Below, piece after piece: positions 5,873 through 31,724 of a stretch of DNA of 32,000 nucleotides. This DNA comes from Nostoc sp. PCC 7120 = FACHB-418 (lineage in GTDB: Bacteria > Cyanobacteriota > Cyanobacteriia > Cyanobacteriales > Nostocaceae): the NCBI RefSeq assembly GCF_000009705.1, contig NC_003272.1:450001-482000 (forward strand), given 5' to 3'. A program made the position numbers and the translations under genes. Numbering within the stretch: position 1 is the stretch's first letter; each line of letters starts with the position of its first letter. The notes under the pieces were generated by a model that saw only the letters and a list, made by a program, of their open reading frames with translations, was not told where the DNA came from and ran no database searches.

Positions 5873-5895
5873 TTCCTGACCTCCTGATAGTTAAT

Positions 5896-5921
5896 GGCAG
5901 TAATAGTTAACTATTACTGCC
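5896..5921. promoter_or_regulatory. Perfect 26-bp palindrome GGCAGTAATAGTTAACTATTACTGCC just upstream of the fhuC ribosome-binding site; candidate operator or intercistronic hairpin
   Basis: Read directly: arms 5896-5908 and 5909-5921 are exact reverse complements. The AT-rich core TAATAGTTAACTATTA has Fur-box-like composition. It lies 11 nt from the fhuC SD. Confidence 0.45.
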
Positions 5922-5999
5922 CTTGAAGATTGCTTTCTGTTGCCTATAACAACTATATAGCTAACCTAATTATGAGTATCTTTGTCAAGTGTTTTCCTC

Positions 6000-6013
6000 A
6001 ATATTGAGAATTA
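6000..6013. promoter_or_regulatory. AATATTGAGAATTA motif (overlaps the 12-bp palindrome CTCAATATTGAG, 5997-6008); candidate iron box shared with 16202-16216
   Basis: The same 14/15-nt string, differing by one T indel, recurs in the same orientation upstream of the biosynthesis operon. It resembles the Fur half-site TGATAATCATT. Confidence 0.35.
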
Positions 6014-7822: not shown

Positions 7823-7833
7823 ATTTTTGTTTG

Positions 7834-7976
7834 GGAATTTTCACGGGTTCTGGATAACCCCTCTCCAAACCTCTCCCCGACACGGAGAGAGGCTTTGAAT
7901 TTTCCCCCTTCCCTACTAGGGAAGGGGGTTAGGGGGTTAGGTTAAGCGTAGATTTTTCCACATAACGTGAAAAATC
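7834..7976 (-). mobile_element. Second, inverted copy of the double-hairpin MITE-like core, with different outer inverted repeats (GAATTTTCACG / CGTGAAAAATC)
   Basis: Its reverse complement aligns to 440-530 (ctaaccccc..ccttccct-NNNN-agggaagggg..caaagcctctctcc-NNNNNN-ggggagaggtttggagagggg). The loops differ while the stems are kept. It sits in the gap between the MFS stop and the synthetase start. Confidence 0.65.
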
Positions 7977-7995
7977 AGATTTAAGAGAAACAGAG

Positions 7996-10472: not shown

Positions 10473-11047
10473 GCTTTCCACCTCTGAAAAAATAGCTGGC
10501 GATCGCAAAACATCAACGCCCCAAATTTATCCGGTAATTCAATCTCTTTCTGAAACTCAAAACCACACTTTTCAAAAACATGAATCATCTTTTGATTGCG
10601 AATATCTGGTTCAGCAATAATCTTTTGAGTTGCTGTATTTTCAAATTGAAAAAATACCATTGCCCGTAACAGTGGCAAAGCATAACCTTTACCTAAAAAT
10701 TTGGTTTCCCCAATTAACAAATGAATACCTTGATCTGTCGCTTCTGCTGAATAATGTCGAGCCACAATATCATCAATTGTCCAGTATGACTCCCAATAAC
10801 TCATCGGTTCATCATCTAAACAACCAATATAAAGAGTTTGATGTTTATCTGCTAAAGTCCTTTGTAAATGCTCCCGCATCCGTTCCAAATCAAAGGCTAA
10901 ATTCCAAAAAGGAATTACATGAGGTTGATTCATCCAGTTATGAATCAGGTTTAAATCCTCCTCCAAAACCACCGGACGAAAAGCAATAGTTTTATTGATT
11001 GCAGCATCAAACCTTGCGTAACTGTAATTAATCATACTAACCGACAT
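10466..11047 (-). CDS. Siderophore N-acetyltransferase (IucB/RhbD-type GNAT)
   Basis: NWMNQPHVIPFWN.. is characteristic of the IucB/Acetyltransf_8 family. ATG at 11047 (MSVSMINY...) has GAGG upstream. The track ORF begins at an upstream TTG (11062). Confidence 0.85.
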   Translation of the reverse strand: MSVSMINYSYARFDAAINKTIAFRPVVLEEDLNLIHNWMNQPHVIPFWNLAFDLERMREHLQRTLADKHQTLYIGCLDDEPMSYWESYWTIDDIVARHYSAEATDQGIHLLIGETKFLGKGYALPLLRAMVFFQFENTATQKIIAEPDIRNQKMIHVFEKCGFEFQKEIELPDKFGALMFCDRQLFFQRWKAW

Positions 11048-11118
11048 AAACTTCAGCCTCAAATTCCTCTCATAAACTCTCTGCGTTACTTTGCGTAAAC
11101 CCCTGCGTCCCTCTGCGT

Positions 11119-12939: not shown

Positions 12940-13057
12940 GTCTAGTGTATTGTTTGGGTGAAAGTTATTTAATGTTGGGAGTGAGGAGAGTTGTTCGCTC
13001 TCCCTCTCTCCTATTTTTTGCTCACGCAGAGACGCGGAGAGAATGAGAGTGTCGAGC

Positions 13058-14674: not shown

Positions 14675-16155
14675 CAAGAAACCTGCGAAAGAACCGATAA
14701 AACCTGCTTCTCCGCCGCCTGTACCGCCGACGAAAAAATCTCACTAATACTATCAATCTGCGCTGGAGTCACAATCAAAGGCGGCAAAAAGCGCACCACG
14801 CTACCAAATCTACCCCCTAATTCCACAATCAAACCCCGACGCAAACACTCAGCCTGAATACAACTAGCCAACTGCGGATGTACAGGATACTTCCCACGCC
14901 GATCAGCCGATGCTTGGGGATTAATAATCTCCACACCAACCATCAAACCGCGTCCCCGCACTTCTCCAATACAGTAAGTTTCCCCTTGAATTTGGTGCAG
15001 ATGTTTCAACAAGCGATCGCCCATCGCTGCCGCGTGTTCAGTCAAGGAATTTTCTAAAATATACTGTAGTGTCGCTGTTCCGGCTGCCATTGCCATTTGA
15101 TTACCCCGGAATGTCCCTGCGTGTGCGCCTGGACTCCATTTATCTAGTGCCTTGTTGTACAAAACCACCGATAAAGGTAAACTCCCACCAATAGCTTTGG
15201 AGAGTAACAACACATCTGGCACAATCCCTGAATGCTCAAAAGCGTAGAGTTTACCAGTCCGTCCTAAGCCTGTTTGAATCTCATCAACAATGAGGGGAAT
15301 ATGGCGATCGCGGGTAATCCGGCGCATCTCTCGCAACCAATCATCAGGTGCAGGAATCACCCCACCTTCCCCTTGCACAACTTCCAAAATCATCGCCGCC
15401 GGTGTGACAATCCCACTTTCAGGATCATCCAAAATCGATTCTATATAACGGCTGCTGGTAATTTGTCCAGCTTCTCCACCCAAACCAAAGGGACAACGAT
15501 AATGATAGGGATAAGGCAAAAAGTGGACATCTGGCATTAACCCTGTCACCGCTTGTTTAGGATTGAGATTGCCTGTTAAACTCAATGCTCCATGAGTCAT
15601 CCCATGATAACCACCATGAAATGACAACACACTGCGGTGGCCAGTAGCAGTTTTCACCAGTTTAATCGCCGCCTCTACAGCATCTGCTCCCGAAGGCCCA
15701 CAAAACTGAATCTTGGCATTCTGAGCAAATTCCGCAGGTAAACTAGCAAAAATTTCTTCGACAAACTGATCTTTAACTGGTGTAGTCAAATCTAGAGTAT
15801 GCAAAGGTAAACCCGTATCTAGCACCCGGCGCATCGCTTCTATTGCTACTGGGTGATTGTGTCCTAATGCTAAAGTACCTGCACCAGCCAAACAATCAAT
15901 ATATACATTGCCATCAGCATCTTTGAGATAAATACCCTGAGCCTCACTAATGGCAATCCGAATCCGCCGGGGATAGCTTCTAGCGTTGGACTCTCGTGCT
16001 TGCTGACGCTCTAAATAGTGGCTTGATGCCGCACCAGGTACAGAACGCACGCGATTACTGGGAAAATCAGACTCTACACTACTCTGCGATGGACATATCT
16101 GCGGCAGCACGAAAGAGTGGCCTTCAGAGTGTACGCCATTGTGATTGAGTTGCAT
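14674..16155 (-). CDS. Class III aminotransferase (diaminobutyrate--2-oxoglutarate transaminase, RhbA/EctB-like); first gene of the biosynthesis operon
   Basis: 493 aa with DEIQTGLGRTGKLYAFEH and the PLP-Lys region LLLSKAIGG. The ~60-aa N-terminal extension is typical of DABA transaminases in siderophore clusters. Confidence 0.9.
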   Translation of the reverse strand: MQLNHNGVHSEGHSFVLPQICPSQSSVESDFPSNRVRSVPGAASSHYLERQQARESNARSYPRRIRIAISEAQGIYLKDADGNVYIDCLAGAGTLALGHNHPVAIEAMRRVLDTGLPLHTLDLTTPVKDQFVEEIFASLPAEFAQNAKIQFCGPSGADAVEAAIKLVKTATGHRSVLSFHGGYHGMTHGALSLTGNLNPKQAVTGLMPDVHFLPYPYHYRCPFGLGGEAGQITSSRYIESILDDPESGIVTPAAMILEVVQGEGGVIPAPDDWLREMRRITRDRHIPLIVDEIQTGLGRTGKLYAFEHSGIVPDVLLLSKAIGGSLPLSVVLYNKALDKWSPGAHAGTFRGNQMAMAAGTATLQYILENSLTEHAAAMGDRLLKHLHQIQGETYCIGEVRGRGLMVGVEIINPQASADRRGKYPVHPQLASCIQAECLRRGLIVELGGRFGSVVRFLPPLIVTPAQIDSISEIFSSAVQAAEKQVLSVLSQVS

Positions 16156-16201
16156 TGTGAAAATCCTCTAGGCGTTGAGCCTTAATGGTAAGTGGGAACA
16201 G

Positions 16202-16216
16202 AATATTTGAGAATTA
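16202..16216. promoter_or_regulatory. AATATTTGAGAATTA motif ~50-60 nt upstream of the biosynthesis operon start; candidate FurA/iron box
   Basis: Near-identical to 6000-6013 and in the same orientation relative to minus-strand genes. It aligns 11/19 to the classical Fur box GATAATGATAATCATTATC. Confidence 0.35.
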
Positions 16217-16392
16217 CTTGCATTAATTTCCTACCTGCTAAACATCCTACATGAAGATTAATGAAAAAGTCTACTAATAACTTGACAAAAAGATAAGAAA
16301 TTTTTGATTCATTAATTCTTCTTATCTAAAGCTAGTTGCATCATCATACTAATGAAACTGATACCGAAAACACGCTTATAAAGGTATGTGTG

Positions 16393-16425
16393 CGTTATTA
16401 ATGATAATGTCAGCAAGAATAATTC
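16393..16425. promoter_or_regulatory. Fur-box-like AT-rich segment (TTATTAATGATAATGTCAGCAAGAATAATT) in the 469-bp divergent promoter region
   Basis: It contains TAATGATAAT, identical to the core of the classical Fur box. It lies between the divergent siderophore biosynthesis and receptor genes. No binding data are available here. Confidence 0.35.
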
Positions 16426-16678
16426 CTAACAGTAAATAGACAAAAAGCAAAATATCTAGAGACTATGTAGGAAGAGCTTTATCGGCTTTTATCATTGGTT
16501 TTTTCGTAGTTAATTCATACCTTTTTGAGATACTTCTTCAAGAAAATACTTGTATAAGTACTGAAATAGATATATTTTAATAAAATCAAAAACTATTGCT
16601 AATGCAAGTCAATAATAATAGGCGATGGATTGTGTCACTAGCCATAATCCAGTCGCAACTTTTAGGTGCGAAGTGAAA

Positions 16679-19228
16679 ATGAAACCCGGAAAAATCCTTT
16701 TTCTTCTCTTGCTCACAGGTTCTGTTTGGTCATTAATCAGCCATCCTGGCAAAACTCAGGAAGCCCCATCCCCAACACAACTAAATACACAATCACCAGC
16801 ACCTAACGCTCAGGAATTGACACAAGTAACTGGCGTGAGAGTTGTTCCTACAGTTCAAGGTCTAGAGGTGATATTAGATAGTACAGCCGCCGAAAAATTG
16901 CAGGTATCAACGCAAAATCAAGGCAATAGTTTGATTGCTGATATCACTAACGCTCAACTCAACTTGTCTGAGGGAAATACATTCAGCCAAAATAATCCAG
17001 CCACAGGTGTAACTAATGTGACTGTGGTTAATCACAATGACAATACAATCCGGGTGACTGTGACGGGAGAGAAAAGCCTTCCCAAATTTGAGCTATTCGA
17101 TAGTGATACAGGTTTGATTTTGGCATTCACGGCTACTGAAGTAGCTCAAGATTCCCCCGCAGAAGTAGATGAACCAATTGAACTGGTGGTGACAGCAACG
17201 CGTACCGAAACACCTATACAAAATGTTCCGCGTTCCATCACTGTCATTGACCGCGAACAAATCGCCGCACAAGCCAGCACTTCCCGCAACCTCATAGAAA
17301 TTCTGGGGAAAACAGTTCCCGGTTTAGCACCGCCAGCCCAAGGCGCTAGTAATTTTGGTCTAACTCTCAGGGGCAGGAATCCCCAAGTGTTGATTGATGG
17401 GGTTCCCCAATCGACAACCAGAAATGCGTCGCGGGATTTGCGAACAATTGACGCGGCGGCGATTGAACGAATTGAAGTAGTACGCGGCCCCAGTGCAATT
17501 TATGGTGATGGTGCAACAGGGGGTGTGATTAATATCATCACCAGGCGACCGACTGAAGAAAAATTAACTTCCCGGACAGAAGTTGGTGTAAGTGCAGCTT
17601 TAGGTAATTTGGAAGGGGACAGTTTTAGCACTAACCTACAGCATTTTATCTCCGCGAAACAAGGGAACTTTGATTTTACCTTTAACTTTGCAGTGGCTAA
17701 AAATGGCGGATTCTTTGATGCTCAAGGCGATCGCATTCCCTCTGATCCTAATGCCCAAGGTGGCTTTGCTGATGCTTCTAGTATTAACTTGTTTGGTAAG
17801 TTTGGTATTGATATAGACGCAAATCAACGTCTACAACTCACCTTTAATCGCTTCGACGAAAAACAAGATACAGATATCGCTAGTGACCCCAGGGTCAATA
17901 CTATCCCTGGAAGACAAAAGGCTCGTGCTTTAGAAGGGTTGAGTTTGGATGAAAGGCCAGGGAATGAGAACACATTCATCAACCTGCAATACACCCATGA
18001 CGATTTATTCAATAGCAAACTACAAGCCCAGTTATATTACCGGGATTACCTGACACGCTTCTTTCCCTTTGATGGTCGTAGCTTTGCTAGTTTGGGTAAC
18101 GAAATCTTTCAATCGCGGGTGGAGTCAGAAAAGTATGGCGGACGCTTGCAGATAGAAACACCTTTATTTAATCAAGGTGCGGCCAAACTACTTTGGGGTG
18201 TAGATTACTCCCAGGAAGATACCTCCCAACCTGTCTCTGTATTCGACCAAGCTGCCTTTGTCGCCAGTGGGGGGTTAGCATTTCGTAAAACAGGCGATCG
18301 CTCTTGGACTCCTCCTTTAGAATTAAGGAGTCTGGGATTATTCGCTCAGTTGAATTGGGAAATAAGCGATCGCTTCGTCTTCAATGGTGGTGTACGCTAC
18401 GAAAACGCTGATGTAAGTGTCAATGATTTCCGCACCTTAGCCAATCCCAACGTCACTATTGGCGGCGGTGATTTGAACTTTAACGCCACACTGTTTAATG
18501 TAGGAGCAGTATACGCCCTCAATCCCCAACTGAGTGTATTTGCTAACTATGCTCAAGGTTTCTCACTATCAGATATTGGTTTAGCACTCCGCAACGCCCC
18601 ACCAGGATTTTCTGTAGAATCTCTCAATCCCGAACCGCAAAAAGTAGATAACTATGAAATTGGCATTCGCGGACAATGGGATACTGTACAAGCATCACTC
18701 TCAGCTTTTTATAACGAGTCCGACTTGGGTACAACTTTCACCGCGCCGGGGACTGTCATCCGCGCCCCAGAGAGAATTTATGGTCTAGAAGCAGCCATTG
18801 ACGCACAACCTAGTTCTACATGGCAAGTTGGCGGGACATTCACTCTCATTGGTGGTGAAATTGACAGCAATAATGATGGCGATTACGAATCATTAGATGG
18901 GTTTAGGATTCCCCCGTTGAAACTTACAGCCTATGTAGAAAATGAGACTTTACCCGGTTGGCGAAATCGTCTACAAGCTTTGTACTCTGGTAATAGAGAA
19001 GTCTTTGGTAATAACAATACGGCCTTTGGTAGGAGACCTGTAGAAAGTTATTTAACAGTAGACTACATCAGTAGTATTAAACTCGGTGCCGGAACATTAC
19101 AACTGGGATTAGAAAACCTATTTAATAGTCAATATTTCCCCGTAGTTTCCCAATTGCAAGCAAATGATAGCGCCTATGCTGCTGCTAGAGGAAGGACTTT
19201 GAGTATTAAGTATTCTTTTGATTGGTAA
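16679..19228 (+). CDS. schT: TonB-dependent hydroxamate-siderophore outer-membrane receptor with an N-terminal AMIN-like domain
   Basis: Signal peptide from ATG at 16679 (MKPGKILFLLLLTGSVWSLIS); the track ORF starts at 16625. An AMIN-like segment follows (VTGVRVVPTVQGLEVILDS...TIRVTVTG). Then come a plug domain (IELVVTATRTETPIQNVPRSITVI, RIEVVRGPSAIYG) and a 22-strand barrel ending ...LSIKYSFDW. The symbol rests on remembered similarity to Anabaena alr0397. Confidence 0.85.
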   Translation: MKPGKILFLLLLTGSVWSLISHPGKTQEAPSPTQLNTQSPAPNAQELTQVTGVRVVPTVQGLEVILDSTAAEKLQVSTQNQGNSLIADITNAQLNLSEGNTFSQNNPATGVTNVTVVNHNDNTIRVTVTGEKSLPKFELFDSDTGLILAFTATEVAQDSPAEVDEPIELVVTATRTETPIQNVPRSITVIDREQIAAQASTSRNLIEILGKTVPGLAPPAQGASNFGLTLRGRNPQVLIDGVPQSTTRNASRDLRTIDAAAIERIEVVRGPSAIYGDGATGGVINIITRRPTEEKLTSRTEVGVSAALGNLEGDSFSTNLQHFISAKQGNFDFTFNFAVAKNGGFFDAQGDRIPSDPNAQGGFADASSINLFGKFGIDIDANQRLQLTFNRFDEKQDTDIASDPRVNTIPGRQKARALEGLSLDERPGNENTFINLQYTHDDLFNSKLQAQLYYRDYLTRFFPFDGRSFASLGNEIFQSRVESEKYGGRLQIETPLFNQGAAKLLWGVDYSQEDTSQPVSVFDQAAFVASGGLAFRKTGDRSWTPPLELRSLGLFAQLNWEISDRFVFNGGVRYENADVSVNDFRTLANPNVTIGGGDLNFNATLFNVGAVYALNPQLSVFANYAQGFSLSDIGLALRNAPPGFSVESLNPEPQKVDNYEIGIRGQWDTVQASLSAFYNESDLGTTFTAPGTVIRAPERIYGLEAAIDAQPSSTWQVGGTFTLIGGEIDSNNDGDYESLDGFRIPPLKLTAYVENETLPGWRNRLQALYSGNREVFGNNNTAFGRRPVESYLTVDYISSIKLGAGTLQLGLENLFNSQYFPVVSQLQANDSAYAAARGRTLSIKYSFDW

Positions 19229-19419: not shown

Positions 19420-19683
19420 TCAAGCATTAGCTATTGACTGAGACTCAGCTAAAAGGTCTGATAAGGCTTGAACTGAGGTAGAATCGGCTTGTGGAGACCA
19501 CACAACTGCTTGGGTTGATGCAAGTTGCTTGAGAAGGTCTTGTTTGGTTGCTTCATCATCATTATTAAGCTCCAAGGTACACCCATCTTCTCTGGCTAGC
19601 TCAAGCAGAAGAAAATGAATCAAGCGTAATTTATCCTGATGAGACAGCTGATTAATGGTAGGTAAAATTTCTTGGAGTGACAT
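19420..19683 (-). CDS. Small acidic helical hypothetical protein (87 aa from MSLQEILPTINQLSHQDKLRLIHFLLLELAREDG...)
   Basis: An internal ATG at 19683 begins a sequence typical of small cyanobacterial antitoxin-like orphans. The 40 codons upstream in the track ORF (19684-19803) look like a separate decayed gene start. Confidence 0.4.
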   Translation of the reverse strand: MSLQEILPTINQLSHQDKLRLIHFLLLELAREDGCTLELNNDDEATKQDLLKQLASTQAVVWSPQADSTSVQALSDLLAESQSIANA

Positions 19684-19803
19684 ACCACAGAGTTTAAAAG
19701 GTATAGCCTCTATTTTATCCCAGTAACATTTTGCATAAACAGTATTTTTATGAGATTGTGAATAGCGATCGCCTCCACGGTCAGTGTCGCTAATGACAAT
19801 CAC
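19684..19803 (-). pseudogene. Possible remnant of a DUF3368 (PIN-like) toxin gene start
   Basis: The GTG start overlaps the UPF0175 stop (GTGA). It encodes (M)IVISDT, matching my recollection of the N-termini of DUF3368 partners of UPF0175. Similarity is lost immediately afterwards, at a HIP1 site (19766-19773). Confidence 0.3.
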
Positions 19804-20048
19804 AATCGCCCCAACTCCTGTAAGTTTTTCAAATCCAACTCAAAATCTTCAACATCATAGGAATACAGCGCAATTTTTCGCTGTTTCAGCAGTTGGCGAA
19901 ACGCATTGAGGGGCATATCTGCTAAACGGCTGGTATAGCCAAGGGTTAAACGACCACTTTGAAACAGATATATGGCAATTTCTTGGCGAAACTCACTTGG
20001 TGTCAGTTGTGAGGCTTGCAGGATTTCATCTGAGATGACAACGCTCAT
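19800..20048 (-). CDS. UPF0175-family antitoxin-like protein
   Basis: 82 aa: MSVVISDEILQASQLTPSEFRQEIAIYLFQSGRLTLGYTSRLADMPLNAFRQLLKQRKI... This is the typical UPF0175 helix-turn-helix pattern (..L..G..S.G.AA.LAG....F...L....I). Confidence 0.7.
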   Translation of the reverse strand: MSVVISDEILQASQLTPSEFRQEIAIYLFQSGRLTLGYTSRLADMPLNAFRQLLKQRKIALYSYDVEDFELDLKNLQELGRL

Positions 20049-20216
20049 AAGAAAACTAACTTAAAGATCACCCTTTCATTTTAATCTGGGCGATCAGCTA
20101 CGCTGGGCGGTTACGCCATCGCTTCCACAGTCAGAGTCTTAAATGCGATCGTACTTTTGCTCCGTGCTGGGTTTCTTGTCGTTAACCTAGCCTATTGCGA
20201 TAAGCGATCGCAATAA

Positions 20217-21059
20217 TTAGCCATTTCCAATATTAATTTCAATAGAAAATTTCACACTATTCGCTGCTATATTTATTACATCTTGTCTGCGGTCTCCAGC
20301 AAAACCAGCTACTAATATTTCTGAGAACCAATACCAAAGCGGCATACAATTAGGCAGAATGTCCTCTAATTTTGCATCTTTACTTTTGTTTATCTGAGCT
20401 TCTACAGCTAGGGCTGGCACAACTAAAACTCCACTGATAGAATCTATTTGACTATCTGATAGAAGTGGAAACCAGATTTCATCACATCCAAAGTGTCCCA
20501 TATCCCATATTGGAGACGAACACTCTTTCCCAGTATCAATAAATGCAGTAGGTATTAATGAATAATCAATATCAAGCAAGCACGAGGGAGTAAAAATAAA
20601 ATAGAATGAGCTAGGAGTAATATCAAGCATTAAACTGCTTTGAGTTTTCTTCTCCAAACCAACTTCATGATAAAAGTCATCTATTTGACCATTCACATCA
20701 ACTCTCTTGCATTGAATGAGGCAACTATATTCTATTTCCGACCGACTATTATTTTGATTTATCCGACGTTTAATGATTAGACCAATATCTGCTCCTGTTT
20801 TATTTTCTTTTGTAGACTTTCGGATATTAGTGTTTAGATAGATGTTCTGATCTCGTAACAACCCAATAACACTTCCCCAAACATTTTCTAATGATGAAGT
20901 ATCCAAGGCATCTACCAAATACTCTGTAAAGGCACGTTCATCTATATTTTGTTTTGAACCTTTGATCCGGTTGTTTAATCTTCTCGCTATTACAGATGAA
21001 ATAGTGAGACAAGGTTGGGAAAGCAACTGTTTGACCTCATCTGTTAACCAAGAATCCAT
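20217..21059 (-). CDS. Orphan hypothetical protein with a PD-(D/E)xK-like nuclease motif arrangement
   Basis: 280-aa ORF, clearly more AT-rich than its neighbours and without HIP1 sites. The motif order is ERAFTEYLVDAL (helix with E), TGADIGLII (strand with D), then CLIQCKR (QxK). I recognise no family for the C-terminal 150 aa. Confidence 0.5.
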   Translation of the reverse strand: MDSWLTDEVKQLLSQPCLTISSVIARRLNNRIKGSKQNIDERAFTEYLVDALDTSSLENVWGSVIGLLRDQNIYLNTNIRKSTKENKTGADIGLIIKRRINQNNSRSEIEYSCLIQCKRVDVNGQIDDFYHEVGLEKKTQSSLMLDITPSSFYFIFTPSCLLDIDYSLIPTAFIDTGKECSSPIWDMGHFGCDEIWFPLLSDSQIDSISGVLVVPALAVEAQINKSKDAKLEDILPNCMPLWYWFSEILVAGFAGDRRQDVINIAANSVKFSIEINIGNG

Positions 21060-21951: not shown

Positions 21952-22284
21952 ATGCAGATGCACGGAGTTAATTTCTTGTGTCATGGGTTTGTAGTTGCTG
22001 TATCCTTTGTGGCTTGCATTGCTGGCTTGATGTTGCTGTGGGATAGCAAAGGTACAAAAGATGATGAACGGGAAGAAACCGAGAAAATTCTATTTAGAAT
22101 GAGCTTTAGTTATTGGCTAGTTTATTGTGTGGCATTTGGTTTGGAAAAGTTGGTTTTCCCTAACTATGAGCCAATGATCATGACATTGAAAATAACTACG
22201 GCTTTGTCATATTTTTTAACTTTTTCTTGTATATTGAGTCTGCCACTACATAGATTTGCAGTACGCCAAGAAGTTCAGGATTAG
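21952..22284 (+). CDS. Small hypothetical membrane protein (about 3 TM segments)
   Basis: 110 aa with hydrophobic stretches FVVAVSFVACIAGLMLLW, YWLVYCVAFGL and ALSYFLTFSCILSL. It sits in an AT-rich context and matches no family I recognise. Confidence 0.35.
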   Translation: MQMHGVNFLCHGFVVAVSFVACIAGLMLLWDSKGTKDDEREETEKILFRMSFSYWLVYCVAFGLEKLVFPNYEPMIMTLKITTALSYFLTFSCILSLPLHRFAVRQEVQD

Positions 22285-23247: not shown

Positions 23248-25278
23248 TTACCGCCAATTCTCCCAATTTTGATTAAAAATGGAAGTATCTGGGAAAGCTG
23301 TGGGATTGCCGTTTTTTTCTAATAAACGTTTGAGGGCTTGCAGTTGAGGTTCTGATTTGGGTAAATCGTCTACTAATTGGTAAGGTGCAACTTCATTTTT
23401 TAAAGAGAAAGCGGCTACAGTTCCCGCCGCCGCACCAGCAGACCATTCAAAGGAATGTACTCGATAAGCTGCGGCTGCAATGTGGCTAGTGGCAATACTT
23501 TTACCCCCGACTATCAAATTATCGATTTTTTGAGGAATCATGGCTCTTAAGGCAATTTGGAAGGGATAGGCTTGTCCTGCACCCCGTCGTTCCCCCGGAC
23601 GTTCTCTATTTCCGGGTGCTTCTGGTGGACTTTTCTCCATACAGGGATGAAAATCAATGGCGTAGTGACCAATACCGACAGCATCAGGGAAAATGGTGGA
23701 ACGAGTCCGCCGCATCGCTTTATCGGGGGAAACTTGACCAGAAATCACTGAAGTTGCCTCTAACCCTGCTAATGTCGCTCTCAACTGGCGATACATATCG
23801 GCTGGCAAGGTTTTGCGGTAGTATTCATCGTTATAGTTACGGCGAGAAATATCAACTTCCCAAATAGTGAAACCTGTGGGTTGTCCCCAACTGGGGCGGC
23901 CGATGATGCGCCTTCCTTCCCGCATATAAGGATATTTCGATAAGCCATGTGCTGTCCCCATAGGGGAGTCTAACCCGGCTAAAAAGCGATTATTAGTTTG
24001 GGGACGCTTCACACCTTGACCTAATTGGGAATCTGTGGTTCCCGCTACTAACCAGTAATAGTAAGAAAAGGCTTTTTCTTCAGCTTTGCGGAGGCTTTCG
24101 GTTCGCAGTCCCCCCATCCAACCACCTGGTTTTAACTGTCCTGTTCCTTGTAGCTGTTGGCGGGTGTAAACTAGGTTATCTTTGGCAGTACCGGGGCGAT
24201 AGTCGTTACCCCAAGTCCAGTTCTGCATGGAGATATCCCCTGGTGTGGGGGCAGAAAATCTCACGCCGTTGAAATTTACAGGTTCTCCCTTCGTTGGACT
24301 CCAAATGCGGCGGTAGGTAAAAACTAAGCCAAAGTCAGCTAATCTTGGTAATTCGTAGCTGAAATAGGGCGAATATTGTAAATAATATGGCGGCATTTTC
24401 TGGGGTTGTGCTTCCTTGGTAGCCTCCATTGCAAAGGTGTAAGTAAAGCCTTGGGTACAATAGGGGTCATTTTTGGCGCTGGAGGAAGAAGGTTCCAGAA
24501 AGGAACGGGCATCAATACCTAAGCGGTAAGGGACATCAGCCAGGGCGATAATTTCCCCGGTTTCACTGGCATCTACGATGTACCATTTAGGACTATTTTC
24601 CTTAGTTTGTTGGGGAACTAGGCGAATAATATTTTTGGTAAACCGGGATGAGTTGCTATAACGATAGGCATCGTCAATGGTTTGTGATAGGGTAAAGGTG
24701 TTGAGAGGTGGTGAGCCTTTGACTGGTTGATGTTGAATAGCGATCGCGCTATTAATTAATTTACCCTGAGAAATTTCTAAATCTTTAATTACTGTGTTGG
24801 GGAACCACTCTAACTTACCCTTACCCCGCCTTTCTGCATCTTTGAGCAATTCCACCATCACCGTATGGGCATCACGGGGCAAAAAACAGGAATCACTCAC
24901 CCAGCAGTCTCCGGGATTGAGCTTACCGTATTTTTTCTGAATGCGATTACGCAATTCCAAATAGCCGCGAGAATAGAATTGACGTTGGCTTTGGGTAGGT
25001 CGTTCATCTAAAGCCGAGGTTCCTTGAGAGGAAATCTGTCCACCCAACCAATCAGTAATTTCTGTTAGGCAAACTCTTCTACCAGCCAATAAACCTTCAT
25101 AAGCTGTAGCAACCCCAGAAAGTCCGCCACCCACCACTAAAATGTCACAGTTGACAGTTTTATCTGGGTTTCTCGGTGGAGCAGCGACAATTGCAGAATT
25201 AGGTATCAGGTAGCCAGAGATTAAGCTGAGACTGATGAGTGATGTCTGGAGACAGGCTACTTTATGTCTGCGCTTCAT
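23248..25278 (-). CDS. Secreted FAD-dependent oxidoreductase (FAD_oxidored/PF12831-like)
   Basis: ATG at 25278 gives MKRRHKVACLQTSLISLSLISGYLIPNSAIVAAPP, a Sec-type signal. The dinucleotide motif is DILVVGGGLSGVATAYEGLLAGRRVCLTE..WLGGQ. Total length is about 676 aa. Confidence 0.7.
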   Translation of the reverse strand: MKRRHKVACLQTSLISLSLISGYLIPNSAIVAAPPRNPDKTVNCDILVVGGGLSGVATAYEGLLAGRRVCLTEITDWLGGQISSQGTSALDERPTQSQRQFYSRGYLELRNRIQKKYGKLNPGDCWVSDSCFLPRDAHTVMVELLKDAERRGKGKLEWFPNTVIKDLEISQGKLINSAIAIQHQPVKGSPPLNTFTLSQTIDDAYRYSNSSRFTKNIIRLVPQQTKENSPKWYIVDASETGEIIALADVPYRLGIDARSFLEPSSSSAKNDPYCTQGFTYTFAMEATKEAQPQKMPPYYLQYSPYFSYELPRLADFGLVFTYRRIWSPTKGEPVNFNGVRFSAPTPGDISMQNWTWGNDYRPGTAKDNLVYTRQQLQGTGQLKPGGWMGGLRTESLRKAEEKAFSYYYWLVAGTTDSQLGQGVKRPQTNNRFLAGLDSPMGTAHGLSKYPYMREGRRIIGRPSWGQPTGFTIWEVDISRRNYNDEYYRKTLPADMYRQLRATLAGLEATSVISGQVSPDKAMRRTRSTIFPDAVGIGHYAIDFHPCMEKSPPEAPGNRERPGERRGAGQAYPFQIALRAMIPQKIDNLIVGGKSIATSHIAAAAYRVHSFEWSAGAAAGTVAAFSLKNEVAPYQLVDDLPKSEPQLQALKRLLEKNGNPTAFPDTSIFNQNWENWR

Positions 25279-25514
25279 GATATGAGGACTCTTTCTACTC
25301 TTGTGCGAACTTGTAGACGTTACCATCTTCTAAAGGTTCTCTACAAGACGGGGTAGGGAGCAGAGAGCAGGGGGAGAAAGATTTTCAGCCTTCTTTACTT
25401 TCATTCACGCAGTTTGGTTTTATTACACTGACTTAAGTAGAACGACCTGAAAAAACCAAATATGTTAAATAATATACAGAACTTATACTTAATTCTTGGA
25501 ATACACGTAGGGGA

Positions 25515-25639: not shown

Positions 25640-26902
25640 CTATCTAATTTCTAGTACCTTTTTAAACTTTGACAATAGCAAACAGACAAAACCAACCACT
25701 ATTAATGACAATGAATAAGTCGGTTCCGGTACAGACTGAGGATTTGGTACAGGCTCATAAGGCGACTGATTTATAGGAATACTACTGAGTAAATTTACAA
25801 GCTGCTCAATATTACTGGACAAACTATTATTATCTGTACCATTATCTCTCGCAAGAATAAGTCGGTTAAATGTTTGGGTTTCTTCTATCTCCAAATTGCC
25901 TGTTAACCCAATGAAATCTTGACCTATTCTTCCCACCACAGAGTTAATTATATTATCAATTCCATCTCTAGTCCCTTGGACAAAAAAATCTGAATTTTCA
26001 AAATTATTACCAAAACCAATATTTGTATTATCGCTATCTATTAGCCAGTTACCATTACCAACAACTGTGTTATTATTGGTAAAAATCCAGTTGCCATTAC
26101 CAAGAATTGTATTGTTAGTACCGAAGTCCCAGTTACCATTACCAATGGTTGTATTATCAGTACCGAAATACCAGTTACCATTACCTAAAGTTGCGTTATT
26201 ATTTCCACTATCTAAATACCAGTTACCATTACCAATTGTTGTATTATCACTGCCATAATGCCAGTTACCATTACCTAAAGTTGCGTTATTATTTCCACTA
26301 TCTAAATACCAGTTACCATTGCCAATGGTTCTATTATCACTACCAAAGTGCCAATTACCATTACCTAAAGTTGCGTTATTACTGCCATCATCCCAGTACC
26401 AGTTGCCATTACCAATGGTAGTGTTACTACTCCCGAAAAGCCAGTTACCGTTACCAACAGTTGTATTATTAGTGTTAAAATTCCAGTTGCCGTTACCGAT
26501 AGTGGCGTTGTCACTACCAAAATCAGAATTAAAATTACCAATAGTTGCGTTACTATTACCAAAGTTTCTATTACCATTACCAATAGGTGAATCGCCAATT
26601 ACAAAAGGATTACTACCCCCTGTAAATGGATTATTAGATTCATCACCGAGAATTAATTGCAAGCGGTCAAAAATTAATTTTTGAAGCTCAATTCCGCCAT
26701 CACCAGCAAAGGGATTGATACCATTTCCGGGAAGGTTGCTATTACTATTTTGTGTATTTTGGCTGATAATTCTGAATAGGTATTGAAAGGGTGATGTAGT
26801 GGGATATTCCCTTGGAGTGGCTTCGCCAACGCTCGGAGATAATTGTTGAGATGAATTATCACTACTAGAGCTATCAACTAAGTTAAAAATAGAATCTTCC
26901 AT
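25640..26902 (-). CDS. GNGNW-repeat (14/16-residue, beta-solenoid-like) protein with a C-terminal PEP-CTERM sorting signal and no N-terminal signal peptide
   Basis: 420 aa. Residues ~107-307 form about 14 repeats of x-G-N-G-N-W-x-(F/L)-(G/D)-x-x-N-x-T, with 11 exact GNGNW. The C-terminus is VPEP-TYSLSLIVVGFVCLLLS-KFKK (PEP motif, TM helix, basic tail). The N-terminus is polar (MEDSIFNLVDSSSSDNSSQQ). Confidence 0.75.
   Translation of the reverse strand: MEDSIFNLVDSSSSDNSSQQLSPSVGEATPREYPTTSPFQYLFRIISQNTQNSNSNLPGNGINPFAGDGGIELQKLIFDRLQLILGDESNNPFTGGSNPFVIGDSPIGNGNRNFGNSNATIGNFNSDFGSDNATIGNGNWNFNTNNTTVGNGNWLFGSSNTTIGNGNWYWDDGSNNATLGNGNWHFGSDNRTIGNGNWYLDSGNNNATLGNGNWHYGSDNTTIGNGNWYLDSGNNNATLGNGNWYFGTDNTTIGNGNWDFGTNNTILGNGNWIFTNNNTVVGNGNWLIDSDNTNIGFGNNFENSDFFVQGTRDGIDNIINSVVGRIGQDFIGLTGNLEIEETQTFNRLILARDNGTDNNSLSSNIEQLVNLLSSIPINQSPYEPVPNPQSVPEPTYSLSLIVVGFVCLLLSKFKKVLEIR
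25982..26584. repeat. In-frame tandem repeat array (42/48-bp units; 90-bp super-repeat near-identical at 26171-26230 and 26261-26320)
   Basis: The string ccagttaccattacctaaagttgcgttattatttccactatctaaataccagttaccatt occurs twice exactly, 90 bp apart. Flanking units are more diverged. Confidence 0.85.
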
Positions 26903-27035
26903 TAGAAATATTCTCTTATTTTTAATTTCAACATTTACGGAAAAATACAGATGAACACAGATATCTTTTTGCTGTTATTCTGCGTCCATCTATAAAGTTT
27001 TTTTGGATAAGTTTAATAATTGCTACTACTAAAGA

Positions 27036-27803
27036 CTAGGCAAAGGGATTGCTACCGCCCGCGAAAGGATTTTCTCCACCTGCGAAAGGATTGCTACCGC
27101 CTGCAAAAGGATTGCTACCGCCCGCAAAAGGATTGCTACCGCCCGCAAAGGGATTGCTACCACCTGCAAAAGGATTGCTACCGCCTGCAAAAGGATTGCT
27201 ACCGCCTGCAAAAGGATTGCTACCGCCTGCGAAAGGATTGCTACCGCCTGCGAAAGGATTTTCTCCACCGCCTGCGAAGGGATTGCTACCGCCTGCAAAG
27301 GGATTACCACCACCGGTTAAGGGATTGCTACCGCCTGCGAAGGGATTTTCACCACCGCCTGCGAAAGGATTGCTACCGCCTGCAAAGGGATTGCTACCGC
27401 CTGCGAAAGGATTGCTACCGCCTGTTAAGGGGTCGCTACCACCTGCAAAAGGATTGCTACCGCCTGCAAAGGGATTACCACCACCGGTTAAGGGGTCACT
27501 GTTATTACCCTGATTGATAGCAGTCCAAGGGTTAACGCCACCAGTCAATGGACTAGCGGGAGCATTGGGATTGCCAAAGTTAGAGAAAGGATTACCGCCG
27601 GCTGGTGCGCCACCGCCAGTTGGTGCGCCACTACCACCGAATGGGTTGTTACCGCTACCACCAACAGCTCTACCAAAAGCCTGGATGATTGTTTCTTCGG
27701 TGACACCTGGGATATTTAATAAAGCACCAAAAGGTGATTGTCGAAGTAAACTACCGAGTTCGTTAGTAGAGGAATTACCACCACTATTATTTGAATCAGG
27801 CAT
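27036..27803 (-). CDS. Low-complexity protein with 22 tandem GGSNPFA-type heptads running to the C-terminus
   Basis: ATG at 27803 with GGAGG (27814-27818) 10 nt upstream. The ~100-aa non-repeat N-terminal region (MPDSNNSGGNSSTNELGSLLRQSPFGALLNIPGVTEETIIQAFGRAVGG...) has no signal peptide or TM segment. It is followed by heptads GG(S/G/E)(N/D)P(F/L)(A/T). Confidence 0.7.
   Translation of the reverse strand: MPDSNNSGGNSSTNELGSLLRQSPFGALLNIPGVTEETIIQAFGRAVGGSGNNPFGGSGAPTGGGAPAGGNPFSNFGNPNAPASPLTGGVNPWTAINQGNNSDPLTGGGNPFAGGSNPFAGGSDPLTGGSNPFAGGSNPFAGGSNPFAGGGENPFAGGSNPLTGGGNPFAGGSNPFAGGGENPFAGGSNPFAGGSNPFAGGSNPFAGGSNPFAGGSNPFAGGSNPFAGGSNPFAGGSNPFAGGENPFAGGSNPFA
27039..27497. repeat. 21-bp tandem repeat array (about 22 units, some 24 bp), in frame with the CDS
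   Basis: Units such as ggattgctaccgcctgcaaaa are repeated nearly perfectly. Four of the six reading frames stay open across the array (see the ORF track). Confidence 0.9.
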
Positions 27804-28300
27804 GAGAAAACATCCTCCTAGAGTTCGGATCAAAGTTTTGTGAGTTATGAAAATTTAGTAGGCAAAATCCAACTAATACCAATTCGCAATTCGCAATTGA
27901 GAAATCCTGACTTGACAAGGGTTTTTGGATTTGAATCTGTTTCAAGATTTTCGTGAATTGGTATAAGTTACAGACTCATCTTGTGTTTTTTCTTGCCAAA
28001 GCTTGATACTGTCCTATTAGGTTTATTAAGTTTTGACAGCTATATTTATTAGCTTGATAATCAATAACTTTTGCCTAATTAATCAAGCTCTTCAATGATT
28101 AACCATTATTAATGTATGTATTTTTCTTGAATTAAGCAATGAATAATATTTAGTTTTATTACTTTATGAATATCCTATTTTTAGGGAATTAAAAATGATT
28201 ATCTATGTACATGAATTAGCGCATAATTGTTCAGTATAAATCATGCGCTGATATGTCCCTCTATCCTTTTGAGGTTCAAAATTAATTGATTAACTTACCG

Positions 28301-29365
28301 CTAAATAACACTAGCTAAAACAGGTTGAGGCCAGCGTCCAACTACTTTACCAATGACTGACATTTCTTGAGCTAATCGGTCAAATCTCTCGAAAGTTAAA
28401 GATTGGGGACCATCAGATAAAGCTCTGGCAGGATTGGGATGAACTTCTATCATTAAAGCATCTGTACCGGCTGCGATCGCAGCTGCTGCCATTGGTGGCA
28501 CATATTCAGATTTACCTGTACCATGACTAGGGTCTATCATAATGGGTAAATGAGTGAGCGATCGCAATACGGGAATCACAGATAAATCCAAGGTATTCCG
28601 CGCATATTTACTATCAAAAGTTCTAATTCCCCGTTCACACAAAATCACGTTAGAATTGCCCGAAGCCATGATATATTCAGCAGCCATTAACCACTCGTCA
28701 ATAGTTGCAGCCATCCCCCGCTTGAGTAGCACTGGTTTATCTTGAGCGCCGACTTTTTTCAACAAGGCGAAGTTCTGCATATTCCGCGCACCGACTTGAA
28801 TCACATCGGCTACCCTTGCCACGGCTGCTAAGTCGGCAGTATCCATAACTTCAGTGATGATACCTAAACCTGTCGCCTCACGCGCCGCCGCTAACAAACC
28901 TAATGCACTTTCGCCATGTCCTTGGAAAGCATAGGGAGAAGTCCGGGGTTTATAGGCTCCACCTCTGAGAAACTTAGCGCCAGCTGCTTTTACACACTTG
29001 GCTGTCTCCACAATCATTTCCTCATTCTCCACGGAACAAGGCCCAGCCACTACAACTATTGGATGATGTTCACCAAAGTAAACACGCTCGTTTGGTGTAT
29101 TGACAATTACCTCGCTGGCTTCTCCATAACGAAATTCTCGACTCACCCGCTTGAAAGGTTTCTGCACTCGCATGACTTGTTGAATCCAAGGGCTGAACTC
29201 TTGAATCTGCAATGTGTCGATAGTGGCGGTGTCACCGATGATTCCCAGAATCACTTTATGTTTGCCGATGCTCTTTTCTACTTTGACTTCCCAAACTTCA
29301 CTTAGACCTTCGCTGATGCGAGTAATTTCTTCAGCAGGTGTACCATTTTTAAGTATGACAATCAT
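28301..29365 (-). CDS. aroG: 3-deoxy-7-phosphoheptulonate (DAHP) synthase, type I-beta, with an N-terminal ferredoxin-like regulatory domain
   Basis: ATG at 29365 (MIVILKNGTPAEEI...). Catalytic core motifs are VVAGPCSVENEE, GGAYKPRTSPYAFQGHG and IDPSHGTG. Track ORF 29407 adds 14 aa that overlap trpD. Confidence 0.85.
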   Translation of the reverse strand: MIVILKNGTPAEEITRISEGLSEVWEVKVEKSIGKHKVILGIIGDTATIDTLQIQEFSPWIQQVMRVQKPFKRVSREFRYGEASEVIVNTPNERVYFGEHHPIVVVAGPCSVENEEMIVETAKCVKAAGAKFLRGGAYKPRTSPYAFQGHGESALGLLAAAREATGLGIITEVMDTADLAAVARVADVIQVGARNMQNFALLKKVGAQDKPVLLKRGMAATIDEWLMAAEYIMASGNSNVILCERGIRTFDSKYARNTLDLSVIPVLRSLTHLPIMIDPSHGTGKSEYVPPMAAAAIAAGTDALMIEVHPNPARALSDGPQSLTFERFDRLAQEMSVIGKVVGRWPQPVLASVI

Positions 29366-29387
29366 TGTTGTTACCTTGTATATGTGT

Positions 29388-30482
29388 TTAGCGTAGAAAT
29401 TCAGCAAGTTGTTCTAACTTTGTCCAAGCCGCGCCACTTTGCAGCACTTCTCTGGCAATAGCTATACCTTTGACACAACCTTCTACAATATCTGTCGTGG
29501 TAATCGCCTCACCAACTTGCAATGCTAAGGCTGTATTTAAAGCGACTACATCTTGTTGGGCTTGAGTCCCTTTACCTTGGAGGATTGCCTTCAAAATTTC
29601 GGCATTTTCCGCCACATCTCCACCGCGTAATACTTCAGTTGGGGCGTGATTTAAGCCTAGTTCTTGAGGATTAAGTGCAAGACAACTGACTTTTCCATCT
29701 TGGAGTATGGCTAAATCGGTCACATCTGCTAGTCCAGCCTCATCTAAGCGTTCCCTTCCGTGGAGAGCGATCGCTTTTCGACATCCCAAATGAGATAATG
29801 CTAGGGCGATCTCTTCGATTAATAAAGGGTCATTTACACCAATAATCTGTCCAGTGGGACGCAGGGGATTAACTAAAGGCCCCAACAAATTAAAAATAGT
29901 CCGCACCTTCAGAGTTTTGCGTAAAGTCGCCACTGTCTTCAGTGCTGGATGCCAACCAGGGGCGAATAAAAAGGTAATTCCCACCTCACTTACTGCGGCT
30001 TGTACCTTATCTGCATTGGCATTGAGATTAATTCCCAAAGCTTCCAACACATCAGCCGAACCAGTCTTGCTAGAAGCAGAACGATTCCCATGTTTGGCAA
30101 CTTTTACCCCGGCTGCCGCAGCCACAAAAGCCACAGCAGTGGAGATATTGAAAGTAGATGCACCATCACCACCAGTTCCGCAAGTATCAATAAGGGGAGT
30201 GGGGAATGGGGAATGAGGAGGGGAGTAAGAGGACTGGGATTGCAGAACCCTGGCCATGCCCACTAACTCTTCAGATGATACGCCTTTAGCTTGGATTGCG
30301 GCTAAGATTGCGCCTGAGAGGACTGGGGGAATGGTATCTGTGAGCCAGCCTTGCATTAAATCTGTCGCTTGGGCAACTGTTAAGGATTGGCGTTTGAGCA
30401 ATTGTTGGAGTATGGCTGACCAGTCGTTGGAGTCGGGAGTAACTGAGATGTTATCAAGTGGAGTTTGAGTTACAGCTACCAT
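29388..30482 (-). CDS. trpD: Anthranilate phosphoribosyltransferase
   Basis: [39 protein letters not shown] and the other canonical TrpD motifs. Confidence 0.92.
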
Positions 30483-30494
30483 ATTAGTTAATGG

Positions 30495-31724
30495 TTAATA
30501 ATTAAGGACTTTGGCGACGGTTTGCACATCTTTATCACCTCTGCCAGAACAGTTGATGACAATGCGAGGGCTACCATTGAGTTGGGGACAGAGAGTTTCT
30601 AGGTAAGCGATCGCATGAGATGTTTCTAATGCGGGTATAATCCCTTCTAGTCGGGAGAGTTGTTGAAATCCATCTAAAGCTTGTTTATCAGTCACGCTGT
30701 AATATTCAGCGCGTCTTATATCTTTCAAATAACTATGCTCAGGCCCTACACCCGGATAGTCTAGTCCAGCACTAATTGAGTGAGCTTCAATGACTTGACC
30801 ATCCTCATCTTGCAATAAGTAACTCATTGCACCATGCAAAACTCCAACTCTACCTAGTGTCAAGGTGGCAGCGTGTTTATCTGTGTCTACACCTTCGCCG
30901 GCGGCTTCCACACCAATCAGACGGATGGAAGGCTCATCTATAAACTCGTGGAACAAGCCAATGGCATTGGAACCACCACCCACACAAGCCAGTAGAATAT
31001 CTGGGAGTCCTCCCCATTTTTCTTGACACTGGACGCGGGTTTCTTTACCGATAATGGCGTGGAAGTCGCGGACAATCATCGGGTAGGGATGGGGGCCAGC
31101 CACAGAACCAAGGATGTAATGTGTGGTTTCTACATTTGTTACCCAATCTCGAATTGCTTCTGATGTTGCATCTTTGAGGGTTCCTGTACCCGCTTCCACT
31201 GGGCGAACTTCCGCCCCCATCAACTTCATGCGGAAAACATTTAGGGCTTGTCGTTCCATATCGTGGATGCCCATGTAAATCACACAATCCAACCCAAAAC
31301 GCGCACATACAGTTGCAGTTGCTACACCGTGTTGACCTGCCCCTGTTTCGGCAATGACACGCTGTTTACCTATGCGTTTGGCGAGTAATACTTGAGCCAA
31401 AGCGTTATTAATTTTGTGTGCGCCTGTATGATTTAAATCTTCACGCTTTAAGTAAATTTGCGCACCAGTTCCGTCTGGTCTGGCGTAATATTCTGTTAGG
31501 CGTTCAGCAAAGTACAATGGGCTAGGTCTGCCTACATAATCACGCAGTAAGTTTTGTAATTCGGTTTGATAGCTGGCATCGTCACGGTATTTTTGATAAG
31601 CGGTTTCTAATTCGCCTAAAGCTGGCATCAGGGTTTCAGGTACATACTTACCGCCGAATTTACCGAATCTGCCTAGTGCATCTGGGCGTGCAAGTTGGTT
31701 TTTAATTTCTGGAGTGCTTACCAC
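30495..31724 (-). CDS. trpB: Tryptophan synthase beta subunit
   Basis: [15 protein letters not shown] (PLP lysine), GGGSNAIG and the overall TrpB pattern. There is a 12-nt gap to trpD. Confidence 0.95.

Follow-up and report, generated by a model that had tools for sequence, protein, structure and literature searches.

The window analysed here comprises 32,000 nucleotides (nt) of Nostoc sp. PCC 7120 (contig NC_003272.1, positions 450,001 to 482,000). On its minus strand lies a gene for a Gly/Asn/Pro/Phe repeat protein of 255 amino acids (aa) (27036..27803 (-), stop codon 27036–27038), which is followed by a gene for a 420-aa protein (25640..26902 (-)). The products of the downstream neighbours match exactly all0405 (BAB72363) and BAB72364 of Nostoc sp. 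PCC 7120, and all0404 has been assigned to ClpS (PMC8147232). By position, the repeat gene is therefore probably all0407 and its 420-aa neighbour, BAB72364, is all0406. Genes of the all0407 and all0406 types constitute an undescribed two-gene module with an obligate-looking partnership, and this module is very probably associated with the supercluster of genes for the pigment scytonemin (scy-ebo-trp/aro).

The open reading frame (ORF) at 27036..27803 is a real gene. Its ATG (27803–27801) is separated by a spacer of 10 nt from the ribosome-binding site (RBS) GGAGG (27814..27818 (-)); both can be read directly, as had been claimed in an earlier account drawn up from the DNA letters (the sequence-only reading). 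The block TCTAGGAGGATGTTTTCT of the 5' untranslated region is kept in five Nostocaceae. Residues 100–255 form a repeat array (27039..27506 (-)) with the consensus GGSNPFA and a 21-bp DNA unit, the final NPFA abutting the stop codon. Tandem Repeats Finder delimits the array to 27040–27476 (period 21, 20.5 copies, 83% matches, score 545). Of the 22 heptads described previously, all 22 units up to the stop codon were recovered, but two are octads and the first is degenerate. In detail, the array consists of 14 GGSNPFA, 2 GGGNPFA, 2 GGGENPFA (8 aa) and one each of GGENPFA, GGSDPLT, GGSNPLT and the degenerate first unit NNSDPLT, i.e. 20 units of seven and two units of eight residues.

Eight units in a row (units 13–20), and not nine as first counted, are near-identical at the DNA level, with differences confined to third codon positions. 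Within the 19 seven-residue GG units, variable sites are found at 7 of 7 third positions and at 4 of 14 first or second positions. Pairwise codon differences among units display a synonymous to non-synonymous ratio of 298:136 in frame, compared with 47:420 and 28:439 in the other two frames. Since these differences are mostly synonymous in the all0407 frame only, the amino acid sequence of the array has been under selection. Orthologous loci retain the same reading frame, rather than a different one, and the same N-terminus. Moreover, gene calls on 17 contigs of NCBI, JGI and ENA assemblies give the very same protein of 255 aa, and the intact array is therefore no assembly artefact. Length polymorphism, anticipated by the sequence-only reading, is borne out across Nostocaceae orthologues, which contain 11–26 NPF-type motifs, but none was seen within the PCC 7120 lineage, for which the 17-contig look-up was able to find identical copies only. 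As by-products, the repeat also gives rise to two long ORFs on the other strand (27020..27517 and 27049..27513).

The protein contains 67 Gly, 35 Asn, 33 Pro, 28 Ala, 27 Ser and 24 Phe, together with nine acidic residues and two Arg (R21 and R45), and is devoid of Lys. Its first 100 residues had been taken for unique sequence; they have indeed no relative in Pfam, NCBIfam or the Protein Data Bank (PDB), but hold a conserved small helical domain. This domain, here termed module A (residues 13–47, 27663..27767 (-), ELGSLLRQSPFGALLNIPGVTEETIIQAFGRAV), is kept across the family. With a 16-sequence family alignment as input, AlphaFold2 predicts helices at residues 13–22, 26–30 and 36–47, with a predicted local distance difference test score (pLDDT) of about 82 for the block. 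The pattern common to homologues is …LLRQSPFGxLLDIPGV…(I/F)FG…. A further stretch, module B (residues 70–97, 27513..27596 (-)), carries an aromatic NPF/NPW motif and occurs in two variants in the alignments: all0407 has GNPFSNFGNPNAPASPLTGGVNPWTAIN, matching the pattern NFGNPNAPxSPLTGGVNPW of its subgroup, and the counterpart in the other subgroup is NPFAGDNFWNIFAGGVNP, with the pattern LPYGGNPFAGDNFWNIFAGGVNP. The repeat region, residues 100–255, was modelled as coil (pLDDT 45–50) and shows no strands, in keeping with the earlier expectation of disordered repeats. all0407 is thus predicted to end in an uncharged, disordered tail of roughly 155 residues and about 22 GGSNPFA units.

Hydropathy of the first 45 residues revealed no hydrophobic N-terminus in all0407, and the protein lacks a membrane segment. 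Here, hydropathy and model scans agree with the sequence-only reading, which had noted neither a signal peptide nor a transmembrane (TM) segment nor a PEP-CTERM signal. The maximum ten-residue hydropathy within the first 45 residues is on average 0.96 for all0407-like and 0.59 for all0406-like proteins, compared with 1.7–2.5 for ScyF/ScyE-like proteins and all0405. The N-termini concerned read MPDSNNSGG… in all0407 and MEDSIFNLVD… in all0406.

all0407 is a member of a small, cyanobacteria-only and so far undescribed family. When 1.84 billion representative proteins were searched exhaustively with a profile, no more than 94 clusters were recovered at E ≤ 0.001. The named homologues found are all cyanobacterial and labelled 'hypothetical', 'PEP-CTERM sorting domain-containing' or, wrongly, 'PPE'. 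Comparison of all0407 and all0406 with Pfam and NCBIfam gave only a sub-threshold match to LbR_Ice_bind, no model of NCBIfam release 20 matched either protein (the tail of all0406 lies at the cut-off of TIGR02595, see below), and a profile of the N-terminal region of all0407 found no relative in the PDB. The statement that the protein belongs to no characterised family was thus confirmed. Assignment of all0407 to the ice-binding family PF21300 (LbR_Ice_bind) was rejected: the match scores 23.2 bits versus a cut-off of 30, and the AlphaFold2 model is strand-free. No fusion gave a functional clue, because ten long family members carry no Pfam domain. The labels 'PPE-repeat protein', 'PPE family protein' and 'Hemolysin-type calcium-binding' of the proteins P0015, P0115 and P0155 look mis-annotated, triggered by the Gly/Asn repeats.

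The family is defined by module A more than by the heptads. A word-indexed search with module A alone returned only seven short Scytonema proteins. Minimal forms of about 90 residues, in which the tail is nearly gone, are also known in the family. In Scytonema, Brasilonema and Tolypothrix, GGFGGG or GGNQFGGG repeats stand in place of the heptads, and in Nodularia and Umezakia repeats of the GGFGGGM type do so. Constant across the family are Gly-richness and regularly spaced Phe residues, so that the members form a natural series in which the sequence and number of the repeats drift and composition is conserved. The C-terminus …PFA is found in 25 of 55 family sequences, even in combination with another repeat unit (GGFGGG, GGNQFGGG). 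This extreme C-terminal (N/I/F)PFA (27039–27047 (-) in the window; orthologues in loci L008–L031) may be a recognition or export motif.

The sequence-only reading had treated the repeat gene in isolation. However, the adjoining gene all0406 (25640–26902 (-)) shares NPF(A/T)GG motifs with it and ends in a PEP-CTERM tail, several members of the all0407 family are themselves PEP-CTERM-tailed, and the pair is linked to the cluster of scytonemin genes in 32 of 37 Nostocales loci and in four different layouts. The all0406 protein starts with a disordered region containing NPFAGD/NPFTGGSNPF motifs, continues into a GNGNW β-solenoid and C-terminal helices, and closes with the PEP-CTERM tail. For the solenoid (residues about 110–290, 26033..26575 (-)), which is built of 14–16-residue GNGNW(x)FGxxNTTIG turns and features Trp/Asn ladders, AlphaFold2 predicts regular short strands with a pLDDT of 70–80. 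The best PDB matches of the model in Foldseek are CbpF (9gh4, E 7.5e-5), BpaC (7o23) and BoaA (3s6l), all of them YadA-like adhesin heads. At the DNA level, the β-roll turns correspond to nested repeats (26007–26586) with periods of 42, 48 and 90 bp, the last with 85% matches, which create several spurious ORFs on the plus strand.

The PEP-CTERM-type tail of all0406 (25643..25732 (-)) comprises VPEP, a hydrophobic helix, predicted for residues 398–419, and the basic cluster KFKK. It reaches 16.0 bits with TIGR02595, exactly the cut-off of 16, and 14.6 bits with PF07589, below the cut-off of 20.7; for comparison, the tails of the family member P0057 and of the Halotia partner protein score 24.3 and 20.3 bits, respectively. 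A second family member, P0008, also ends in a PEP-CTERM tail, and the tail of P0057 matches that of the ScyF model. Homologues of all0406 number 256, all uncharacterised, and its orthologues are annotated as PEP-CTERM proteins by NCBI. In most orthologous loci the all0406-type gene comes after the all0407-type gene. In Halotia, the pair is kept together though it lies outside the scy cluster, and P0025 (L052, 10001–11323) is a natural fusion of a GNGNW β-roll, module A and Gly/Phe repeats.

Linkage of the module to scytonemin genes was followed in a scan of one genome per species, which used a four-sequence alignment of the window's subgroup, with module B stretches as patterns, and samples that subgroup only. 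It revealed 37 orthologous loci, all in Nostocales and all with intact orthologues. In 32 of them aroG, usually together with trpD, is located within 8 kb; five of these 32 are reoriented or convergent, with adjacency kept. The gene order in this first layout is ...trpD-aroG-[all0407-like]-[all0406-like], and in a Brasilonema locus as well as in L001, the locus of the window, eboF-trpE...aroG precede the family member. The second layout, scyABCDEF-[member]-[β-roll partner]-eboA, is found in Chroococcus and a related genome (L045 and L047), with same-strand gaps of 107–135 bp around the member in L045. In the third (L048), genes for a β-roll protein, a family member and a 121-aa NPF protein are situated directly 5' of scyA. 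In the fourth (L052), a distance of 39 bp separates the gene for the fusion protein P0025 from scyA, which follows it in the same orientation; the fusion gene probably opens the scy operon.

Family members follow the trp operon in L050 and L051. In L051 (8780–15384), which belongs to a genome of 8.3 Mb, five consecutive genes of both families come after trpE-trpD; one of the five products, a protein of 281 aa, has two copies of module A as well as GGGDMGGGGNPF repeats. With the curated models of NCBI for ScyA, ScyB, ScyC, ScyD/E and ScyF, the neighbouring genes score above the respective cut-offs. Overall, 7 of the 11 members with retrieved context, the window counted, are part of the scytonemin supercluster. 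Since the four arrangements are spread over different cyanobacterial orders, inherited gene order alone hardly explains the linkage. No mention of an association of the pair with scytonemin clusters was found in the literature searched. As a separate matter, an 88-aa minimal member in Scytonema hofmannii PCC 7110 (L049, 10001–12531) is convergent to the gene of a 680-aa NHL-type β-propeller, beside a VKOR gene. This propeller was rejected as a Scy link, its score of 32 bits comparing with a cut-off of 80 for the ScyD/E family.

Among the sunscreens of cyanobacteria, scytonemin is the most widespread. The cytoplasmic steps (ScyABC), Ebo-dependent export to the periplasm and dependence on cyanoexosortase B are known, and production in foreign hosts has so far yielded monomers only. 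ScyD, ScyE and ScyF belong to the PEP-CTERM proteins, scytonemin requires cyanoexosortase B, and the finished pigment is associated with exopolysaccharide, its passage across the outer membrane being undefined (PMC12188702). Exit of the lipid-soluble pigment from the periplasm is likewise undefined (PMC6282210, PMC4870267). We propose, with a probability of roughly 0.45, that the all0407/all0406 pair serves the scytonemin pathway as an accessory matrix module of the envelope or sheath. As such, the pair would be a concrete candidate for the missing step, that is outer-membrane crossing or holding of the lipid-soluble pigment in the polysaccharide sheath, and would be relevant to scytonemin production in foreign hosts.

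According to this proposal, both proteins would act in the cell envelope or sheath. The β-roll partner could be sorted by cyanoexosortase and anchored to the outer membrane or to exopolysaccharide, and the helical head of all0407 (module A) might be a docking piece. The Gly/Phe tail would behave as a sticky 'sticker-and-spacer' polymer, which could provide hydrophobic and aromatic surroundings within the hydrophilic sheath for the lipid-soluble, aromatic scytonemin or for monomers on their way out; alternatively, it might tether periplasmic Scy enzymes. For the pair as a whole, the odds of an extracytoplasmic location are close to even. Direct binding of scytonemin is unlikely. Still more doubtful is a bolder version, in which all0407-type tails form an extracellular or periplasmic FG-like Phe phase that is held at the surface by the β-roll/PEP-CTERM partner, dissolves and retains scytonemin in the sheath and is exported without a Sec signal. 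If true, this would amount to a bacterial counterpart of nucleoporin FG gels serving as pigment host, and to a Sec-signal-free export route, even for PEP-CTERM proteins.

Several observations weigh against an accessory role in the scytonemin pathway. No Sec or Tat signal peptide is present in any family member examined, but a clear one is found in ScyF of the same loci. The tail of all0407, …GGENPFAGGSNPFA, matches no PEP-CTERM model (TIGR02595 / PF07589) at E ≤ 10. Export is thus not accounted for, and the protein might instead be cytoplasmic. Four of the 11 sampled members have no scy gene in their vicinity, namely those of Halotia, Nostoc edaphicum, Chroococcidiopsis and Scytonema hofmannii, and the many Nostocales loci are not independent events. 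The disorder call for the tail rests on the 16-sequence alignment. PCC 7120, reportedly a non-producer of scytonemin (PMC2726228), keeps all0407 intact. Conversely, N. punctiforme makes scytonemin and its cluster ends in NpR1259, a 2-TM protein without Anabaena homologue (PMC2726228), which was rejected as the same gene; no N. punctiforme protein was among the homologues found in our searches. Since this species apparently makes the pigment without the module, the latter is probably not essential for scytonemin synthesis.

To these points adds the expression record, in which neither transcript nor peptide evidence for all0407 was found in the sources searched (two exoproteome, one transcriptome). 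The gene was not found in the main texts of the literature searched, nor in the supplement of the FurC exoproteome study, which lists only all0405. A 2026 exoproteome preprint does not mention it in its main text, and it is missing from an antisense-transcriptome supplement as well. As far as proteomics is concerned, this absence is uninformative, because residues 46–255 are free of Lys and Arg and trypsin-based methods are blind there.

The strongest competing explanation, in our view somewhat unlikely, is that the pair forms a general matrix module for sheath, exopolysaccharide or adhesion with no direct role for scytonemin, and that it lies near scy and trp genes through shared stress induction (UV, desiccation) or inherited order. 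It would account for the members and pairs away from scy genes in the four genomes named above and for the retention of all0407 in PCC 7120, where no scytonemin is made (PMC2726228). The partner fold, that of adhesin heads, would suit it as well, and PEP-CTERM proteins are generally tied to exopolysaccharide functions (PMC12188702). Furthermore, all0406 responds to the group 2 sigma factor SigC: upon nitrogen step-down it is mildly down-regulated in a sigC mutant, with a listed mutant/wild-type value of -1.16 (PMC4390870). A general function, however, does not readily explain four positions relative to the scy genes in different orders, including the scyF-eboA gap and a site 39 bp before scyA, nor the location of 7 of 11 members inside a supercluster that covers well under 1% of the genome.

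A location on the opposite side of the inner membrane is considerably less probable. all0407 would then be a cytoplasmic protein, or one at the inner-membrane face, whose sticky, disordered tail serves as a scaffold for ScyA/B/C and the additional trp/aro enzymes or retains the hydrophobic monomer before Ebo export. The lack of a signal peptide anywhere in the family and of a membrane segment in all0407, its missing record in the PCC 7120 exoproteome sources checked and the adjacency to genes for cytoplasmic steps (trp/aro, scyA) are consistent with such a role. On the other hand, several members and most partners end in a PEP-CTERM tail, which is known only for inner-membrane-crossing proteins, the partner has the fold of surface adhesin heads, and with no tryptic sites past residue 45 the exoproteome absence carries no information.

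Even more remote is the idea of a decaying or functionless ORF that belongs to the relic cluster of PCC 7120 and stays open only because 21-bp slippage preserves the frame. Whole-unit slippage could hold the frame without selection, the scytonemin cluster of PCC 7120 has been called a relic (PMC2726228), and the sources searched contain no expression evidence for all0407. However, the units differ by a marked excess of synonymous changes, and this in the all0407 frame alone, the N-terminal domain, the RBS and upstream non-coding blocks are kept across species, and intact orthologues exist in 37 genomes.

That all0407 is a multi-core ribosomal peptide precursor, with module A as a leader ending in Gly-Gly and each heptad as a core, is hardly credible and was rightly called weak by the sequence-only reading: many identical short units do follow a conserved N-terminal region, 'AVGG' (residues 46–49) is loosely like a double-glycine site and minimal members of about 90 residues exist, but neither the window nor the other loci encode a C39-peptidase transporter, protease, cyclase or peptide-modifying enzyme, the repeat unit differs between orthologues (NPFAGG, GGFGGG, GGNQFGGG, GGGDMGGGGNPF) and is not flanked by cleavage motifs, and some members are PEP-CTERM-tailed or fused to a β-roll. 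Module A is no cleavable leader, because it is internal or duplicated in tandem in other members (P0008, P0025 and the 281-aa protein of L051). When compared by inspection with a leader register of the LSxxELxxIxGG type, the candidate double-glycine sites 'EDIFGNVGG' and 'IIQAFGRAVGG' have a polar or small residue instead of a hydrophobic one at position -4, and positions -12 and -15 of the minimal members are polar too.

Among the known systems closest to the pair is PEP-CTERM/exosortase sorting, in particular as represented by ScyD/ScyE/ScyF and cyanoexosortase B (CrtB; PMC12188702). all0406, P0057 and P0008 likewise end in Pro-Glu-Pro, a hydrophobic helix and a basic cluster, genes of all0406 and of family members share clusters with ScyD/E/F, and low-complexity proteins without homology to known families are found in both cases. 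In contrast to these substrates, all0407 itself has no such tail, and all0407, all0406 and the PEP-CTERM-bearing members lack the defining N-terminal Sec signal. Furthermore, ScyD/E/F are NHL β-propellers, which all0407 and all0406 are not. No exosortase gene (CrtA/CrtB) is present within the window. PEP-CTERM-tailed proteins without N-terminal signal peptide occur in both families (window, 25643–25732 (-); L045, 10001–11555; L047, 10001–12331) and therefore conflict with the accepted model of Sec export followed by exosortase processing, a misfit that holds independently of scytonemin.

With the YadA-like left-handed β-roll heads (CbpF 9gh4, BpaC 7o23, BoaA 3s6l) the pair shares the predicted solenoid of 14–16 residues per turn, and some all0406 homologues carry a precomputed match to the Lolium ice-binding β-roll PF21300. 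This likeness is that of all0406 and not of all0407, and the PEP-CTERM tail takes the place of the autotransporter anchor. For all0407, a reasonable analogy is offered by the cohesive disordered FG repeats of nucleoporins (GLFG type), as suspected in the sequence-only reading. In both, uncharged Gly/Asn/Ser-rich spacers carry one Phe at a regular short interval and are predicted to be unstructured, and repeat sequence and number drift quickly, Gly and Phe composition being kept. Unlike nucleoporins, however, all0407 is bacterial and possesses a helical head and a conserved C-terminal PFA; sequence homology is absent and the comparison is one of analogy only.

To our knowledge, WspA, the water-stress protein of Nostoc commune, is not encoded in the scytonemin cluster, and no sequence relationship to all0407 was seen. 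However, it has been proposed to interact with scytonemin, in work cited in PMC7997468, and thereby sets a precedent for the association of a protein of the extracellular matrix with the sheath pigment. Substrates of RTX/type I secretion resemble all0407 in lacking an N-terminal signal, in being acidic with nearly no Lys or Arg, and in their Gly-rich repeats up to the C-terminus, where all0407 has the conserved PFA end. They differ in that all0407 has no GGxGxDxUx nonapeptides and no match to the RTX family of Pfam (HemolysinCabind). No transporter or membrane-fusion gene is located nearby, the only ABC genes of the window being those of the fhu-type ferric-siderophore importer (2145–5872), and the PEP-CTERM tails of all0407 relatives would not suit this route.

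Upstream of all0407, a spacer of 497 nt separates the gene from aroG and contains sequence blocks shared by five Nostocaceae. One of them, the palindrome GCTTGAT-N23-ATCAAGC (28052..28088, no strand assigned), immediately precedes a TATAGC box and is a candidate operator or RNA hairpin. It is unique in the window, has 0 matches in shuffles and is present only in close Nostocaceae loci; its hairpin has a predicted energy of -11.7 kcal/mol versus a shuffle mean of -4.4. An inverted repeat, GCGCATGAT...AT(T/C)ATG(C/T)GC (28219..28248, no strand assigned), is situated about 55 nt past the aroG stop codon and might act as a terminator-like hairpin or operator (-12.7 kcal/mol versus a shuffle mean of -4.8). 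In folding energy, the two elements lie about 4 standard deviations below shuffled controls. The spacer gave no match in Rfam, and a consensus scan for promoters and terminators stayed at background level. The conserved palindromes suggest that all0407 has a separate, regulated promoter of its own in this genus.

Beyond the spacer, aroG (28301–29407), trpD (29388–30482) and trpB (30495–31724) together form the distal end of the scytonemin-associated aromatic amino-acid operon (28301..31724 (-)), as identified from called genes and Pfam families in L001, among them DAHP_synth_1. Farther upstream on the same contig follow trpA, an alcohol dehydrogenase gene, trpC, trpE and the gene of an eboF-type phosphodiesterase. 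According to Soule et al. 2009 (PMC2726228), these duplicated genes of aromatic amino-acid synthesis make up the distal portion of the cluster for scytonemin. In Anabaena PCC 7120 the cluster is present but was called a relic, the pigment not being made (PMC2726228).

Downstream of the pair, all0405 (23248–25326 (-)) codes for an FAD-dependent oxidoreductase (PF12831) of 692 aa that bears a Sec-type signal. In the FurC exoproteome supplement of PCC 7120 its abundance is strongly changed (log2 fold change about -4.6). It is no conserved neighbour of the all0407/all0406 pair in other genomes. The left part of the window (621–19228) is occupied by a hydroxamate-siderophore cluster of the schizokinen/aerobactin type, comprising genes for two IucA/IucC synthetases, a lysine/ornithine N-monooxygenase, an acetyltransferase, a decarboxylase, an aminotransferase, an MFS exporter, the fhu-type ABC importer and an AMIN-domain TonB-dependent receptor. 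ORFs of 127, 280 and 110 aa (19420–21059; 21952–22284) have no Pfam match. The 127-aa ORF follows a UPF0175 gene on the same contig, with which it may form a toxin-antitoxin-like pair.

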